Shown here: piece after piece, positions 1 through 10,041 of the stretch
Layout: each line of letters opens with the position of its first letter
Position numbering within the stretch: the stretch's first letter is position 1
DNA from: an uncultured Actinomycetes bacterium
GTDB lineage: Bacteria > Actinomycetota > UBA4738 > HRBIN12
Direction of reading: 5' to 3'
Assembly (NCBI GenBank): GCA_963775735.1
Contig: CAVZKD010000007.1
Span: 1,394,889-1,458,888, forward strand
DNA length: 64,000 nucleotides
Translations under genes and position numbers: made by a program
Notes under the pieces: generated by a model
What the model saw: only the letters and a program-made list of their open reading frames with translations
What the model was told of the DNA's origin: nothing
Databases searched by the model: none

Positions 1-186
1 CGCGCTCGACACGGAGGGGACGCCGAGCTCGTGCAGGCGCTCCTCGATCGCCTCGGCCACCTGGTAGGCGCGCACGGGCGAGAGCCCGGTCACCATGACC
101 TGGGAGGCCATCAGGCCTTTCGAGTACGGCAGCCCCGGGTCTCGGTCCGAGATGAGGATCTGTGGGTGTTTCGGTTCGTTCGTCAT
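1..186 (-). CDS. pgk2: 2-phosphoglycerate kinase, N-terminal ATP-cone portion (truncated by window edge; absent from ORF track)
   Basis: Manual translation from ATG 186: MTNEPKHPQILISDRDPGLPYSKGLMASQVMVTGLSPVRAYQVAEAIEERL..., resembling the LPFSKG...GL...AY.IA N-terminus of archaeal 2PGK; ATGA overlap with cDPG synthetase stop. Confidence 0.8.
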   Translation of the reverse strand, partial: MTNEPKHPQILISDRDPGLPYSKGLMASQVMVTGLSPVRAYQVAEAIEERLHELGVPSVSSA

Positions 187-1511
187 CTGCGTGCGCGTCG
201 CTCTCCTGCGAGATCGATCGTCTCCTCCAGCGCGGTCGGGAGGTCCATCTCCCCCTCCACCGCGACGGCCCGGTTGTCGACGAAGACCACACGGGCTCCT
301 CGGGCAACCGCGCGGTCCGACGCGAGGTCGACCGCTGCGGCCTTCAACTCCGTGAGGAGCACTTCGTAGTCCTTCGCACCGTCCAGGTCCTGTTCCAGAC
401 CGGCCCGATCGGCCAGCCGGGTGCTCCACCCCACCACGCGGCACCCGTGGGATCGCTCGAGGGTCGCAACCTGCCTCGCGGCAACCGCCCCCGGCGCCGT
501 CGTCGTGAAGAACACGTCCCTGCCTCGCACATCGTCGACCGGGTGTGGTTCGAAGTCCGTCACGATGAGCCGGGCATCACCGCGTAACCGTTCGACGTGG
601 GACCGCAGGGTAGGGATGTTCTCGAGCCCGGCTGGGCTGTGGGCCATGGTAACAACGACCAGGTCCGATAGCAACAGTCGGAAGGGGCCGAGGTAGCCGC
701 CCAGGTACTCCGGCGGCAGGGTCGCCGGCACCGCGAGCACACCAGCATCCCAGGGCACCGGCGGGACCGCAGCCCCGCTGCCGTCGAAGATCACGATGCC
801 GGCGCCCAGCCCGATCGCGACCTGGGCGGCCTCCCGCACGTTCGTCGCCGCGGGCTTGCCGGCGAGGCCACCACCGGCCCGACGGGCGCCGACGGTGGTC
901 ACCCCGCTCGTCACCGCGACCTCCAGGTAGTCCGAGGCCGCGTGCTCGCCGTCCCGCACGAGCTCGAGCAGCCGGTCGAGCGTGACGCTGCCGGCGGGTG
1001 CGATCTGCGGCTCCGGTGGTCCACCGCGACCCATCGCCACGACGACGGGCGACAGCGCGCGCGCCGCGGCGACGCGCGCGGTCTCACCGGTGATCGCCGT
1101 CTTGCCGGTCCGCTTCCCGGTCCCGATCACGGCGAGGGTCGTCGCCGGCAGGGCAGGCCCCTCGATCGGTGGGTCGAGCCGGAAGTCCGGCCCCAGGTAC
1201 GGGATGCCGCGTGCCAGCGTGACCGCGGCGAGCTCCATCCGCTCGCGGTACCCGAGCACCGGCTCGTCGGACAGGTCGAAGACACCCTCGGCGTTCGTGG
1301 CCGAGATCGCGTCGGCGAGCGCGGCCGCGATCGGGTCGCCCGCCGTCCGCAGGGGGAGCCCGAGCTCGGGCTCGGCGCCCGGCCGGAGCTTCTCCGTGCC
1401 GCCCACGAGCAGCGCGAGCACGGGGTCCAGCCCGCGCGCTCGCGCGGCGTCGATCCCCCACCGTGTGACGGGGGGATAGTGCTCGCCGTCGACGAGGACG
1501 AGGACCCTCAC
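183..1511 (-). CDS. cpgS: cyclic 2,3-diphosphoglycerate synthetase
   Basis: GTG 1511; motifs DGEHYPP, GGTEK, DLSDEP, IGTGKRTGKT, MGRGGP, HAASDYLE, RRAGGGLAG, DGSG, TELKAAAVD. Confidence 0.9.
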   Translation of the reverse strand: MRVLVLVDGEHYPPVTRWGIDAARARGLDPVLALLVGGTEKLRPGAEPELGLPLRTAGDPIAAALADAISATNAEGVFDLSDEPVLGYRERMELAAVTLARGIPYLGPDFRLDPPIEGPALPATTLAVIGTGKRTGKTAITGETARVAAARALSPVVVAMGRGGPPEPQIAPAGSVTLDRLLELVRDGEHAASDYLEVAVTSGVTTVGARRAGGGLAGKPAATNVREAAQVAIGLGAGIVIFDGSGAAVPPVPWDAGVLAVPATLPPEYLGGYLGPFRLLLSDLVVVTMAHSPAGLENIPTLRSHVERLRGDARLIVTDFEPHPVDDVRGRDVFFTTTAPGAVAARQVATLERSHGCRVVGWSTRLADRAGLEQDLDGAKDYEVLLTELKAAAVDLASDRAVARGARVVFVDNRAVAVEGEMDLPTALEETIDLAGERRARR

Positions 1512-1543
1512 GCCTGATCCTTCCGGAACGGGTCGGGTGGCGG

Positions 1544-2344
1544 CTACTCTCCCTGGTGCGCGGCCTCCGCTCGGCGTGGCTGCACCGGCGGCTCGAGCTC
1601 CCGGTAGAACTGCTCTCCGGTCGACAGCCGGAAGTGCGCGATCACGCTTCCACCTCCGAACGGGTAGCGACGGGTGATCTTCACCTCGTCGCCCTCGAAC
1701 TCGAGCACGTTGTAGCAGGGCTTCGTGTGTCCGCGCAGTCGGAGCGAGGCCACGGTGCCCGCGTTCGCCACGTACAGGTCCTCGAGGCGCCACACGTACG
1801 GGACGTGTTTGTGTCCCGAGAGCACCACGTTGACGCCGGCCTGGACCAGCTCCTCGAGCAGGTCGCCCGCGTCCATGACGGTGCTGCGCTCCCGGCCGGT
1901 GCCCGGGATCGGCAGGAGGTGGTGGTGCAGCACGAACACCTTGAGATCGGCCGGGACGTCGAACCGCTCGCGGATCCAGGCGTAGCGCTCCCGGCCCACC
2001 TGGCCCTCGTTGATGTCGGGCTCGCTCGAGTCCACCCCCACGAGTCGGACCCCCTTGACGTCCTGCGCCCAATGGCGCGGCCCCACGAGCTCCTCGAAGT
2101 GCAAGTACCCGACATTGCGAGCGTCGTGATTGCCCGGAACGGTGTACGTCGGCGCCTGGATCCGCTGCGCGTAGGCGACCCAGTTCTTGTACTCCTGCCG
2201 GTACCCCTCGTTCGTCAGGTCGCCGCTGCAGATCACGACGTCGGGCTCGAGCTCGTTCAGTTCGACGAGCACCCGGTTCATCAGGTTGGGGACGAAGTAG
2301 GGCGAGCCGACGTGCGGATCGGAGATGTGGGCGATCGTGACCAC
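1544..2344 (-). CDS. calcineurin-like metallophosphoesterase (CpdA/Icc-like)
   Basis: All five metal motifs: HISDPH, SGDLT, PGNHD, LHHH, GHKH. Confidence 0.9.
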   Translation of the reverse strand: MVTIAHISDPHVGSPYFVPNLMNRVLVELNELEPDVVICSGDLTNEGYRQEYKNWVAYAQRIQAPTYTVPGNHDARNVGYLHFEELVGPRHWAQDVKGVRLVGVDSSEPDINEGQVGRERYAWIRERFDVPADLKVFVLHHHLLPIPGTGRERSTVMDAGDLLEELVQAGVNVVLSGHKHVPYVWRLEDLYVANAGTVASLRLRGHTKPCYNVLEFEGDEVKITRRYPFGGGSVIAHFRLSTGEQFYRELEPPVQPRRAEAAHQGE

Positions 2345-2438
2345 GTCCGCTCCATCTTAGCGGCGCCCAACCACGAAGCCCGGACGGCCGGGCCCGGGCG
2401 TCGTTCCCCCGCAGACGCGTGGGACGATAGCCGCACCC

Positions 2439-3608
2439 GTGAACGCCCTCGATCTCATCCTGGTCGCGCTGCTCGCGCTCGCCGGGATCAGCGGCTACCG
2501 ACGAGGCTTCACCATGCAGGCGTTCGGGTTCGGCGGACTGCTGATCGGGTTGTTCATCGGCGCGCTCCTCGCGCCCACGGTCGCGCGCCTGGCCGGTGGG
2601 CCGCAGGCGCAGGCCGGGCTCGCCGCGCTCGTGCTGTTCACGGTGGCAGGGATCGGCAACGCGATCGGATGGCTGCTCGGCGTGCGCGTGCGGGACCGTG
2701 CCGCGGGCACGTTCGGGCAGGCGGACGCCGTCGCGGGTTCGGCCACCGCGGTGGTCGCCTCGCTGCTCGCGATCTGGTTCGTGGCGCTGAACCTGGTGAG
2801 CGGGCCCTTCCCGGCGATGGCGAGCCAGATCCGAGGGTCGGCCGTGGTCCGCACGCTCGACGCCGCGCTCCCCGAGCCGCCGTCACTGCTGGCGCAGGTG
2901 CGCCAGCTCTTCAACCGCTTCGGCTTCCCCGACGTGTTCTCCGGCATCCCGCCGCTGCCGGCCGAGCCCGTCGACCCCCCGACCCAGGCGCAGGCCGTCG
3001 CCGCGGTCGACGCCGCCGCCACGAGCACCGTCCGCGTGGTCGGGCAGGCCTGCGATCAGATCCTGGAGGGCTCCGGCTTCGTGGCCGACCCTCGGTACGT
3101 GGTGACGGCCGCCCACGTGATCGCGGGCGTGCGCGACCCGAGCATCCAGTCGCCGAGCGCGGGCACCGTGGCGGCGCGGACGGTGCTCTTCGACCCCGGC
3201 CTCGATCTCGCGGTCCTGCGGGTGGAGGAGGCACCCGGACCCACGCTCCCGTTGGCGGCCGGGCCGCTCGAACGCGGAGACGTCGGCGCCGTGCTCGGCT
3301 ACCCGGAGAACGGACCGCTGGACGCGCGCCGCGCCGCGGTCCGACGAACGATCGACGCGCTCGGGCGGGACATCTACGGGAAGGGGCAGGTGGACCGCCT
3401 CGTCCTGGAGCTTCAGGCGGAGATCCGGCCGGGGAACTCCGGCGGCCCCTTCGTCCTGCCGGACGGCCGCGTGGGCGGGGTCGTGTTCGCCGCGTCGTCG
3501 ACCGATCCGGAGATCGGGTATGCGATCGCCTCCGAGGAGATCCGGGGTGTCCTCGACGACGCGCTCGGCGAGACGGACGAGGTCGGCACGGGGCCCTGCG
3601 TCCCGTGA
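2439..3608 (+). CDS. MarP-family membrane serine protease (CvpA-like TM domain + trypsin domain)
   Basis: N-terminal TM helices; GSGF, TAAHV, DLAVL, GNSGGP; Cys pair (QAC...GPC). Confidence 0.9.
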   Translation: MNALDLILVALLALAGISGYRRGFTMQAFGFGGLLIGLFIGALLAPTVARLAGGPQAQAGLAALVLFTVAGIGNAIGWLLGVRVRDRAAGTFGQADAVAGSATAVVASLLAIWFVALNLVSGPFPAMASQIRGSAVVRTLDAALPEPPSLLAQVRQLFNRFGFPDVFSGIPPLPAEPVDPPTQAQAVAAVDAAATSTVRVVGQACDQILEGSGFVADPRYVVTAAHVIAGVRDPSIQSPSAGTVAARTVLFDPGLDLAVLRVEEAPGPTLPLAAGPLERGDVGAVLGYPENGPLDARRAAVRRTIDALGRDIYGKGQVDRLVLELQAEIRPGNSGGPFVLPDGRVGGVVFAASSTDPEIGYAIASEEIRGVLDDALGETDEVGTGPCVP

Positions 3609-6808: not shown

Positions 6809-7692
6809 TTAGACCTCGAGGATCTCCACCCCGGTGGACCGGACGGGAACACGCAGGACCCGCCAGCCGGCACCGGGAGGGGGGACGCGATGGTCCTCCC
6901 GGTCGAACGCGATCAGGCTCGGACCCGCCCCCGAGACGCAGGCGGGGACCTGCGCCTTCCGCACCCGATGCAAGACCTCCCGGACCCCGGGAACGAGGGA
7001 CAGTCGAGCCTCCTCGTGGAGGCGATCCCGCATCGCCACGAGCAGCAGGTCCGCGATCACCGCTCGTCAGCGCCGCCACCGCCAACGCGCCGTGGGCGAC
7101 GTTGTAGACGGCATCGGCGAGCGGCACCGCCGCCGGCAGGGCCTCGCGTGCCCGGTCGGTCGGGATCCGCGCATCCTCGGGAACGAGGACGACGGGCTCG
7201 CAGCCCGGGATGGACGTCGAACCTTCGAACGAACCCGTCCGACACGACCGTGAGGCCCCCGTAGACGGCCGCCGCCACGTTGTCCGGGTGTCCCTCGAGT
7301 TCCGCCGCGTACGCGAACGACGCGTGGGGGTCGTCCCAGCCGGCGGGGCCGAGCAAGACCCGTGCCAGCTCGGTCCCCGCGACGACCGCGGCGGCGGAGG
7401 AGCCGAGGCCCCGCTCGAGCGGGATACGGTTCGAGCCGTGGAGGACGTGCGGAGGGACGGACGCCTCGGGATGGAACCGTCGCTGCCGATCGACGGCCGC
7501 CGCGATCGCCCGGCTCACGAGGTCCGAGCCGTCGGTCGGGAGCTCGTCCGCGCCCTCCCCGACCCAGCGCACGCCGGGTTCGGCGTCCGTGTCGATCGTC
7601 ACCTCGTTGCACAGATCGAGCGCGAGCCCGAAGCAGTCGAACCCCGGCCCGAGGTTGGCCGAGGTGGCCGGCACCCGGGCGACCAGGCGCAC
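6809..7692 (-). CDS. thrB: homoserine kinase (apparent frameshifts near 7200 and 7060)
   Basis: [43 protein letters not shown], spread over three frames. Confidence 0.85.
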
Positions 7693-7694
7693 GG

Positions 7695-8748
7695 TTAGAG
7701 CCCGAGCTCCGCCGCGACGACGTGGACGTCGACCGGGACGGTGGGCGGGTGGCGCCGCACCGCTGATCGCCCACTCGGGGTCCTTCAGCCCGTGGCCGGT
7801 CAGCACGCAGACGACGCGCGCGCCCCGCGGCAGCCGATCCGTCCCCGACAGCTGGAGCAGCCCGGCGACGCTGGCGGCCGACGCCGGTTCGGCGAACAGG
7901 CCTTCGCGCGCGACGCGTCGGTACGCCGACAGGATCTCGCGGTCGGTGACGGCCGAGATCGCGCCCTCGGACTCCCTCGCGGCGGACACGGCGCGTTCCC
8001 AGGACGCGGGGTTGCCGATCCGGATCGCCGTCGCGATCGTTCGCGGGTCCGGCACCGGCTCGCCTCGGACGATCGGCGCCGCCCCCGATGCCTGGAAGCC
8101 GAACAGCCGCGGGGGCTCCCCGATGACGCCGTCGCGCAGGTACTCGGAGTAGCCGAGCCAGTGGCTCGAGATGTTCCCCGCGTTGCCGACCGGCACGCAA
8201 TGTACTTCCGGCGCGCCGCCGAGGGCGTCGACGATCTCGAACGCGCACGTCTTCTGGCCCTCGATCCGATCCGGGTTCACCGAGTTGACGAGCGTGACCG
8301 GGTACCGCCCGGCGAGCTCGACGGCGAGCTCGAGCGAGGCATCGAAGTTCCCGTCGACCTCGAGGACCCGGGCGCCGTGCGCGAGCGTGCCGGCCATCTT
8401 GCCGAGCGCGACCTTGCCCTTCGGCACGAGCACGACGCAGGTGAGCCCCGCCTTGGCCGCGTAGGCGGCCGCGCTGGCGCTCGTGTTCCCGGTCGAGGCG
8501 CACACGATCGCCTTCGAGCCCTCCTCGACCGCCCGGCTGACCGCGAGCGTCATCCCACGGTCCTTGAACGAAGCGGTGGGGTTCGCGCCTTCGAACTTCA
8601 GCCAGACCTCGCACCCGGTCTCCTGCGACAGCGGCTCCGAGCGCACGAGCGGCGTGCCACCCTCGCCGAGCGTGACCACGGGCGTCGAGGCCGTGACCGG
8701 GAGCCGGTCTCGATACTCCTCGATCACCCCGCGCCAGGGACGCGCCAC
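7695..8748 (-). CDS. thrC: threonine synthase (frameshift near 7745 at C-terminus)
   Basis: [47 protein letters not shown]. Confidence 0.92.
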
Positions 8749-8750
8749 GG

Positions 8751-10041
8751 CTACTCCTCGGCCTCGACGCGCAGGACGCTTCGCACCTGCTCGACGGCAC
8801 CGAGCTCGCGGAGCTCGCCGACCGCGTGCTGGAACGGCCCTCCCGCGCACGGTGCGTGATGAACACGAGCTGGGCGTCGTCTCCGGTCCCCTCCTGCCAG
8901 ACGCTCTTGATCGAGACGTCGCTGCGAGCGAAGACGCTCGCGATCTCGGCGAGGACACCCGGGCGATCCTCGACGCGCAACAGGATGTAGTACTGCCCGG
9001 TCATCTCCTCCATCGGTCGGATCGTCCGCTCGTGGAAGCAGGTGCAGCCGACGCCGCGAGCGCCGGACAGAGGTTGCGCGCGACGCTCACGAGATCGCCG
9101 ACGACCGCCGTCGCGGTGGCGGCGCCGCCCGCGCCCCGCCCGTAGAACATCAGCTCGCCGACGCTGGGTCCCTCGACGAACACCGCGTTGTTCGCCTCGC
9201 GGACCGCGGCGAGCGGGTGTCCAGCCGGGATCATCGCCGGGTGGACCCGCGCCGCGATGCGTTCGTCGGCGCCGAGCTCGGCGATCGCGAGCAGCTTGAT
9301 CACGTACCCGAGCCGCGCGGCGAACTCGATGTCCTCGGTGGTGACGGACCGCACGCCCTCGCGGAACACGTCGGTCGCGGTCACGCGCGCGTTGAAGGCG
9401 ATGGATGCGAGGATCGCGCACTTGGCCGCGGCGTCGTGCCCGTCGACGTCGGCCGTGGGGTCCGCCTCCGCGTAGCCGAGCGACTGGGCGGCGGCGAGCG
9501 CGTCGGCGAAGGCGGTCCGTTCCTCCGACATCCTCGTGAGGATGAAGTTCGTGGTGCCGTTCACGATGCCCATCACCCGGCGGAGCCGTTCGCCGGACAG
9601 GGACTCCTTCAACGGCCGGATCAGGGGGATGCCGCCGCCCACGGCCGCCTCGAAGTACAGATCCAGACCCTTGGCGTCGGCCGCATCGAACAGATCCTGC
9701 CCGCGGTTCGCGAGCAGGTCCTTGTTCGCGGTCACGACCGGCTTGTCGCGCTCGAACGCGGCGAGGATCAACGAGCCCGCCGGCTCCGCACCGCCGATCA
9801 GCTCGCAGACGATGTCGACGTCCGGGTCATCCACGATCGCCATCGGATCGTCCACGAACGCGGACGCGTCGAGCGGCACGTCGCGGACCGCGGTCGGGTT
9901 CCGCACCGCCACACGCGTGACGTCGAGGCGGCAGCCCGCCCGCCGCTCGATGTCCGCCCGGTGCTCGACGAGCAGACGGACCACCGCCGCGCCCACGGTT
10001 CCGCACCCGAGCATGCCGACGTGCAGGACCCGATCGTTCAC
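8751..10041 (-). CDS. hom: homoserine dehydrogenase with C-terminal ACT domain (frameshifts about 9065 and 8845)
   Basis: [44 protein letters not shown]; ACT motif EDRPGVLA in another frame. Confidence 0.9.

Follow-up and report, generated by a model that had tools for sequence, protein, structure and literature searches.

A metallophosphoesterase that accompanies the cyclic 2,3-diphosphoglycerate genes of Actinomycetota, a candidate hydrolase of this compound

What is a metallophosphoesterase (MPE) doing at the head of a run of genes for cyclic 2,3-diphosphoglycerate (cDPG) in an uncultured actinobacterium? The question is raised by one end of a 64,000-nucleotide stretch of DNA, hereafter the window (G000:C7:1394889-1458888), from the metagenome-assembled genome (MAG) G000, which is 83% complete with 2.3% contamination. 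The open reading frames (ORFs) of the window, read directly, give on the minus strand the MPE gene, a 32-nt spacer, a homologue of cDPG synthetase and, through an ATGA overlap, a 2-phosphoglycerate kinase. A first-pass annotation had described these three tightly packed genes, and all of them lie where it had placed them (Table 1). A 2023 structure paper on the synthetase (PMC10690619) states that cDPG occurs exclusively in hyperthermophilic methanogens. We found that the MPE is very probably tied in some functional way to the cDPG module, and we lean, if only slightly, towards the view that it would hydrolyse cDPG and/or 2,3-diphosphoglycerate (2,3-DPG).

We take the synthetase homologue to be a true member of the cDPG synthetase family, with an activity that is predicted. 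The alignment of its residues 3-435 to positions 6-451 of the solved Methanothermus fervidus synthetase, 8ORU (8ORK), has an E value of 1.6e-90 and ~40% identity, and a second solved synthetase, 9SXB, was matched at 9.5e-87; none of the Pfam and NCBIfam model copies used matches the protein. Synthetase genes in bacteria are not new as annotation: public records name close relatives “cyclic 2,3-diphosphoglycerate synthetase” and carry PF27272, as the first-pass annotation had noted for bacterial homologues in general terms; a protein homology search with the window synthetase listed close relatives only. According to the structure paper (PMC10690619), the residues of the M. fervidus enzyme that contact the substrate, Mg and ATP are E45, K46 (from the partner subunit), K145, R146, K149, T150, D208, E305, P335, T353, E404 and K406, with K145, R146, K149 and T150 forming the Walker A loop and D208 acting as the Mg ligand. 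In the alignment to 8ORU, the blocks GGTEK, GTGKRxGKT, HAASD and TELKAAAVD, together with the Pro and Thr positions, are conserved in the window synthetase, the blocks being identical or almost identical. The adenosine/ribose contact of E305 is lost, the archaeal TMCEEP aligning to TMAHSP in the window protein; this contact is peripheral and not catalytic. Since the residues holding 2,3-DPG, Mg and the ATP phosphates are conserved, cDPG would be the simplest product, and we infer that the bacterial synthetase makes it.

The 62 kinase codons inside the window match 2-phosphoglycerate kinase models at 4e-7 to 4e-8. The DNA fetched to the left of the window (L002) was read to complete the genes that run off its edge, and there the full protein of 316 aa matches NF003259 with an E value of 1.3e-87, covering 295 of the 306 model positions at 294 bits, which is below the curated equivalog cut-off of 343. 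Its N-terminus has a weak ATP-cone match (4.1e-4) and AAA_33 is matched at 2.7e-8, so that an ATP-cone-like region is followed by a P-loop kinase domain. The P-loop itself, GGTTGVGKST, lies just beyond the window edge; since it is present there, the objection that the first-pass annotation had raised against its own proposal, the lack of a kinase P-loop next to the ORF at 1-186, falls away, and the identification of this ORF as a 2-phosphoglycerate kinase stands. The resemblance to the M. fervidus cDPG pathway extends to the full length of the synthetase, its P-loop, Mg-binding Asp, GGTEK pair and TELKAAAVD block, and to the domain order and P-loop of the kinase. On the other hand, the window genes lie in one tight operon with the MPE and an aldolase, whereas 25 methanogen-like contigs with sufficient flanking DNA have the synthetase with neither kinase nor MPE nearby. 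The window genes also come from the soil MAG of an actinobacterium that is uncultured and no hyperthermophile.

The MPE belongs to the calcineurin-like class (Pfam Metallophos PF00149, E value 9.5e-21, 75.5 bits against a cut-off of 21.5). An alignment of 32 orthologues with 42-76% identity contains 46 invariant positions. These include all five dimetal motifs in 32/32 sequences (D9-x-H11, G41-D42, G71-N72-H73-D74, H140-H141-H142 and G177-H178-K179-H180), a basic loop adjoining the metal site, P147-G-T-G-R151-E-R153, that is found in no characterised relative, and D158-A-G-D161, V181-P182, W185, R204-G205 and K179, while R76, R118 and R202 are nearly invariant. So many invariant basic residues around the dimetal centre would fit a small, highly anionic substrate, and with all its metal motifs kept the MPE is taken to be catalytically intact. 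An AlphaFold2 model of the protein (pLDDT 91, pTM 0.89) is weakest at residues 141-160, which correspond to the invariant loop. A Foldseek search with this model gave GpdQ (1.3e-16) and Rv0805 (1.4e-16) first, at 19-22% identity and TM scores of about 0.65-0.72, followed by purple acid phosphatases; the best matches by sequence among solved structures were likewise GpdQ and Rv0805 (about 1e-10), and a search of the ESM Atlas returned only the MPE's own family. With GpdQ, a glycerophosphodiesterase of Enterobacter aerogenes, and with Rv0805/CpdA, the window protein shares the calcineurin-like dimetal fold and the five metal-binding motifs. It differs from them, besides the low identity, in the PGTGRER loop, in GHKHVPxxW and in a distribution that follows the cDPG genes. 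The first two features are the marks of a separate clade, for which we predict a substrate new to this known superfamily. LpxH and ApaH, phosphoanhydride hydrolases of this superfamily, set a precedent for the chemistry proposed here. No hydrophobic segment was detected in the MPE (the maximum Kyte-Doolittle mean over 19 aa is 0.85), and it is predicted to be a soluble protein. An anti-phage role was considered and rejected: the matches to the NCBIfam “anti-phage phosphoesterase” (58 bits against 420) and to PADLOC PDC-S10 (30.7 bits) are local and reflect the fold that these proteins have in common.

The nearest characterised relatives by both sequence and fold, Rv0805 and GpdQ, suggest another function, that of a class III cyclic-nucleotide phosphodiesterase of the CpdA/Rv0805 type, acting on cyclic AMP (cAMP) and placed beside the synthetase only through old gene order. 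The names given to relatives by JGI, “3',5'-cyclic-AMP phosphodiesterase” or “Icc protein”, point in the same direction. However, the identity to Rv0805 and GpdQ is only about 20%, and the MPE reached neither the cut-off of the CpdA model NF008359 (42.6 bits against 225) nor that of the SpdA model (39.5 bits against 400). Its distribution also tracks the synthetase rather than cAMP signalling. The same 401 Actinomycetota genomes, G000 included, were searched three times, for the synthetase (E<=1e-10), the MPE (E<=1e-20) and the kinase (E<=1e-20), and matches were found in 230, 227 and 228 of them, respectively. By a comparison of the match lists made by hand and checked against the tallies per family, 225 genomes have both the synthetase and the MPE, five have the synthetase only (G019, G195, G281, G177, a weak match of 1.4e-12, and G391, a partial one), two have the MPE only (G117 and G315) and 169 have neither. 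As read from the family labels, the synthetase occurs in 43 of the 78 families. At these thresholds all three genes are absent from whole families, f11 (0/21), f12 (0/19), f17 (0/13) and f24 (0/10), and they are present in every or nearly every genome of f6, f13, f16, f18, f28 and f30, the genomes of f18 being 1.3-2.4 Mb in size. That the MPE was not found in the synthetase-free families, f24 with its large genomes among them, speaks against a cAMP phosphodiesterase, since these lineages would be expected to use cAMP. Of the genomes counted, 14 are flagged as unpublished (G088, G343, G318, G148, G048, G174, G018, G239, G226, G082, G001, G120, G268 and G391); without them, the numbers become 212 with both, four with the synthetase only, two with the MPE only and 169 with neither. 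It should be noted that the counted genomes are related and hence not independent, and no P value is attached to the co-occurrence.

We analyzed the gene order in two sets of loci. The close set consists of the best 80 of 407 relatives retrieved by a species-genome scan, with synthetases 64-77% identical to that of the window, and apart from a single locus they derive from MAGs whose titles read Actinomycetota/Actinomycetes or just bacterium. In 78 of the 80, the MPE gene immediately precedes the synthetase gene on the same strand, the other two starting inside or just before the synthetase gene at a contig end; downstream, the kinase is found in 79/80 and the aldolase in 78/80. The distant set comprises the synthetase regions, ~20 kb each, of 40 genomes from 35 other families. 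Here the MPE is directly upstream in 33, the kinase adjacent in 35 and rho downstream in 38 of the 40 loci. The spacer between the MPE stop and the synthetase start, with starts extrapolated from tblastn, has a median of 41 nt in the 78 close loci and of about 11 nt in the 33 distant ones, and in several loci the two genes overlap by 1-10 nt. No gene of the module is better conserved than the MPE, whose identity exceeds that of the synthetase in 77/78 close loci (means of 82 and 71%) and in 33/33 distant loci (60 and 47%). The first-pass annotation had suggested comparing the synteny and co-occurrence of this phosphoesterase clade with cpgS/pgk2, and in bacteria the outcome was strongly positive (both in 225/401 genomes, adjacent in 78/80 and 33/40 loci). 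The co-occurrence and the kinase P-loop together make a role of the MPE in cDPG/2,3-DPG metabolism a well-founded hypothesis at the sequence level. A record titled Candidatus Velamenicoccus archaeovorus (L029) also has an actinobacterial-type module in the usual order, with an MPE 85% and a synthetase 72% identical to those of the window; this contig may be mis-binned.

Adjacency could also mean nothing more than chance linkage in a conserved core region, with the MPE as a hitch-hiker that has no functional tie to its neighbours. After all, neighbours with no function in common, namely rho, prfA and the thr genes, are just as constant, and one block deletion would take out the MPE, synthetase and kinase together. 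The exceptions to the usual order are informative in this respect. One locus of family f16 (L083) reads argS, MPE, synthetase, glpX, coding for a class II fructose-1,6-bisphosphatase (PF03320, 6.6e-104), and rho, and three others of the family (L084-L086) have the same gap free of kinase and aldolase genes, glpX being confirmed in L083 only and argS upstream of the MPE noted for that locus. The kinase is located elsewhere in all five f16 genomes tested (35-38% identity). With the kinase gone from the locus and the MPE and synthetase still adjacent, the MPE-synthetase pair outlasts the kinase. In f58, the kinase, synthetase and MPE are together, and neither a thr gene nor rho lies within 8 kb of them; the trio has moved as a unit. 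In f6, f13 and f63 (six loci), thrB or another gene abuts the synthetase and there is no MPE in the ~20 kb fetched, but the MPE has been kept: the five genomes tested from these families each have exactly one unlinked copy, which shows 44-50% identity and carries the signature motifs as well. The place of the MPE is occupied by an SppA-like gene in G019, and no MPE was found in the whole 95%-complete genome. Retention of the unlinked copies, the persistence of the pair in f16 and the joint move in f58, together with an independent arrangement on archaeal contigs, make mere hitch-hiking very improbable.

Outside the phylum, 226 synthetase clusters were retrieved at E<=1e-30 among 1.84 billion cluster representatives, some of them named as Cloacimonadota, Bipolaricaulota, Asgard archaea, Thermococcus paralvinellae or Acidimicrobiia. 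The closest tested representative to the M. fervidus synthetase (P0154, 442 bits) was aligned with 23 other non-actinobacterial ones, and metagenome contigs were scanned with this alignment, a methanogen-like query, which yielded 80 loci; a profile of the 32 MPE orthologues served to detect the MPE in them. It is present in 34 of the 80. In 30 loci, with a G+C of 0.42-0.69, it lies upstream of the synthetase on the same strand and has both PGTGRER and GHKHxP. Another three (L153, L177 and L203; G+C 0.43-0.44) have a second gene order, with synthetase, kinase, a CBS-domain protein and a tandem MPE of roughly 510 aa, and in the last one, on a Thermococcus-like contig (L207), the synthetase and kinase are followed by a convergent tandem MPE cut by the contig end. 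We read L153 and L177 as archaeal because they encode an Orc1/Cdc6-like protein; none was seen on L203, which is probably of the same lineage because it shares their architecture. Against the MPE profile, the first half of the tandem protein reaches 353-397 bits, and it keeps all metal motifs. In the second half the metal ligands are lost (GPRD for GNHD, GHSS for GHxH), so that it may be a pseudo-enzyme domain. Among named proteins, those nearest to the archaeal MPE half come from Thermococcus, and T. paralvinellae, the source of one of them, also provides a synthetase cluster. About 15-16 low-G+C loci share thermosome, hisD and aspS neighbours, have neither kinase nor MPE nearby and appear to be methanogen-like. 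The association that the first-pass annotation had proposed to look for in archaea is therefore there in part: the MPE stands in cDPG gene clusters on some contigs (L153, L177 and L207), and the adjacency is missing on the methanogen-like ones. On three high-G+C contigs (L128, L184 and L198), the kinase gene immediately precedes that of the synthetase and the DNA fetched shows no MPE, which makes another gene order. A wider archaeal branch of the MPE, with GH(K/R)HRP and about 260 bits against the profile, is found in Thaumarchaeota/Nitrosopumilaceae and Bathyarchaeota.

In a quick tree of the family (short search, midpoint root, many open forks), the window sequence falls in a bacterial half. 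A recent transfer from archaea was ruled out by this placement and by the same core position, thrB-rho, across the phylum. The notion of an archaeal-type operon in an actinobacterium, with which the first-pass annotation had begun, has to be given up: with 230/401 genomes and a conserved core position, the trio is an old bacterial trait and not an archaeal import.

The following cycle is proposed. The kinase would phosphorylate 2-phosphoglycerate to 2,3-DPG, and the synthetase would close the intramolecular pyrophosphate of 2,3-DPG, at the cost of ATP, to give cDPG. The MPE would then open the cyclic phosphoanhydride to restore 2,3-DPG, or remove a phosphate from 2,3-DPG, or do both in turn, and in this way 2-phosphoglycerate or 3-phosphoglycerate and phosphate would be returned to glycolysis/gluconeogenesis. 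The genes of the module are probably co-transcribed, so the balance between making and breaking would have to be struck post-translationally, with ions, phosphate or energy charge as the controls. In the ppk-ppx operon, the maker and the breaker of a phosphoanhydride store, polyphosphate, are likewise transcribed together and balanced after translation. This is an analogy only, since the window module has unrelated protein families and would handle a small cyclic molecule instead of a polymer. The neighbouring aldolase/transaldolase or class II fructose-1,6-bisphosphatase and the CBS-domain protein of the archaeal contigs suggest a link to sugar-phosphate pools and adenylate sensing. An activity of the kind proposed was described in Methanothermobacter thermautotrophicus by Sastry et al. 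(1992); in a 2005 review (PMC1224877), it is given as a cDPG hydrolase that converts cDPG to 2,3-DPG, is membrane-bound and inhibited by K+ and phosphate, and comes with no gene. The reaction is the same as that proposed for the MPE, and it would give cDPG a storage role.

The association indicates that the MPE acts in the same pathway; it does not indicate which bond is cut. The MPE might be tied to the module by another job, trimming 2,3-DPG or a by-product or acting on a related phosphoester, or the product of the module might be something other than cDPG. The loss of E305 in the window synthetase, the variable sugar-phosphate genes at the flank (aldolase/transaldolase or glpX) and the position of the MPE as the most conserved member, at a mean of 60% in the distant loci against 47% for the synthetase, would all be compatible with this. 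Nevertheless, the synthetase has retained its contacts to 2,3-DPG, Mg and the phosphates of ATP, and the only known phosphoesters and anhydrides of the pathway are 2,3-DPG and cDPG; we regard such a different job or product as unlikely.

Several observations weigh against hydrolysis of cDPG or 2,3-DPG by the MPE. None of its solved relatives binds cDPG, and a hydrolase co-transcribed with the synthetase risks a futile cycle. Its conservation exceeds that of the synthetase in 110/111 loci. The activity of M. thermautotrophicus is reported to be membrane-bound (PMC1224877), whereas the window MPE is a predicted soluble protein. In addition, 46 of the 80 metagenome loci have no MPE, 25 of them with at least 3 kb on both sides of the synthetase. 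Taken together, the 25 loci and the contrast between membrane-bound and soluble forms mean that the MPE may not be the methanogen enzyme. Seven of the 40 distant actinobacterial loci also have no MPE near the synthetase. The wider MPE branch occurs in Nitrosopumilaceae, and mesophilic ammonia oxidisers are reported to have lost the synthetase (PMC7554672); accordingly, the MPE-synthetase association holds for the core clade and not for the whole family. In two of the five cases tested (f6 and f63), the unlinked MPE is back to back with a small cyclic-nucleotide-binding protein. This divergent pair fits a cAMP phosphodiesterase and is the best single point in favour of that function, which we still judge to be quite unlikely given the scores and distribution described above and the presence of the MPE with cDPG genes in a second gene order on archaeal contigs. 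Finally, the core run that harbours the module (thrC/thrB ... rho, DUF1385, prfA) is itself conserved, and much of the pattern, joint absence as well as adjacency, could be due to common descent and a small number of block deletions. The rearrangements, the unlinked copies and the distinct gene orders of archaea speak against such an origin, but these cases are few.

In the literature searched, from which subscription journals were largely missing, we found no report of cDPG or its genes in Actinomycetota, no demonstration of the compound in any bacterium, none of a metallophosphoesterase linked to cDPG and no assigned gene for cDPG breakdown. A broader proposal, which we put forward tentatively and with some doubt, is that this MPE clade is the missing cDPG hydrolase and that cDPG serves as a regulated store of phosphate, carbon or energy, or as a signal, through a three-gene module that would be ancestral to over half of the sampled Actinomycetota, including those with genome sizes of 1.3-2.4 Mb, and shared by several groups of archaea. 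If this were true, a 30-year-old enzyme activity would have its gene and cDPG turnover would be opened to bacterial genetics. The view of what cDPG is for would change as well, since most carriers are not thermophiles, and the enzymatic producers of cDPG would gain a hydrolase to avoid or to exploit. The substrate can be made in one step (PMC12136491).

The module occupies a site inside the conserved actinobacterial run that goes from thrC/thrB to rho and prfA (Table 1). The kinase gene is followed, again with an ATGA overlap, by a fructose-6-phosphate aldolase/transaldolase of 220 aa (TIGR00875, 260.6 bits against a cut-off of 245.95), and rho begins at the base after the aldolase stop, so that rho and the cDPG genes may be on one transcript; next come a DUF1385-like gene and prfA. 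On the other side of the MPE gene, there are the divergent CvpA/trypsin-like protease gene, a YkuD transpeptidase gene and a gene for a glycoside hydrolase of 751 aa, with thrB and thrC beyond them. The divergent intergenic region is the likely promoter region of the run. A sigma-70 consensus promoter scan of the run gave no sites, which says little in DNA of 70% G+C, and a terminator scan, uninformative at that G+C, gave none either.

Table 1. Coordinates of the features discussed. Positions are those of the window unless preceded by the label of another fetched stretch (L numbers)
Feature	Position	Strand	Basis
MPE, 266 aa, first gene of the run	1544-2344	-	GTG at 2344, TAG at 1544; Pfam PF00149
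Spacer, 32 nt, with a ribosome-binding-like stretch (GGAAGGA) a few bases before the synthetase start	1512-1543	-	direct reading
cDPG synthetase homologue, 442 aa	183-1511	-	GTG at 1511, TGA at 183; homology to PDB 8ORU/8ORK
ATGA, synthetase stop overlapping the kinase ATG	183-186	-	direct reading
2-Phosphoglycerate kinase, first 62 codons, running off the left window edge	1-186	-	whole gene L002 13236-14186, 316 aa
Divergent intergenic region, 94 nt, between the MPE and CvpA/trypsin-like protease genes	2345-2438	.	ORF layout
CvpA/trypsin-like protease gene, divergent from the MPE gene	2439-3608	+	Pfam Colicin_V plus Trypsin_2
Glycoside hydrolase, 751 aa	4532-6787	-	GDE_N_bis, GDE_C
Threonine-synthase-like and homoserine kinase sequence	6809-8958	-	
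rho	L002 10963-12576	-	
glpX, class II fructose-1,6-bisphosphatase	L083 8846-9850	-	PF03320
Cyclic-nucleotide-binding protein beside the unlinked MPE	L123 2340-2831; L125 2310-2756	+	PF00027, 2.8e-22 and 7.1e-21
Archaeal tandem MPE	L153 9211-10755; L177 7535-9100; L203 8327-9844; L207 2890-3705		
Kinase directly upstream of synthetase, without MPE	L128 4223-6911		

The protein of 751 aa has a GDE_N_bis match (3.4e-53), a glycoside hydrolase domain resembling mannosylglycerate hydrolase (7.1e-21) and GDE_C. Among the 40 distant loci, seven have a homologue just upstream of the MPE, two others have one on that side at a distance of up to a few kb, and in two more it directly precedes the synthetase with no MPE between. 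A hydrolase of a glycerate-based solute, if that is what this protein is, would make a neat pairing with the cDPG module. The rho gene encodes a long insertion rich in Arg, Asp and Gly in its N-terminal part. In the region of the thr genes, one frame runs from threonine-synthase-like sequence into the N-terminus of homoserine kinase, and the C-terminus of this kinase is read in a different one (6809-7060), which has the look of frame breaks or of indels in the MAG assembly.

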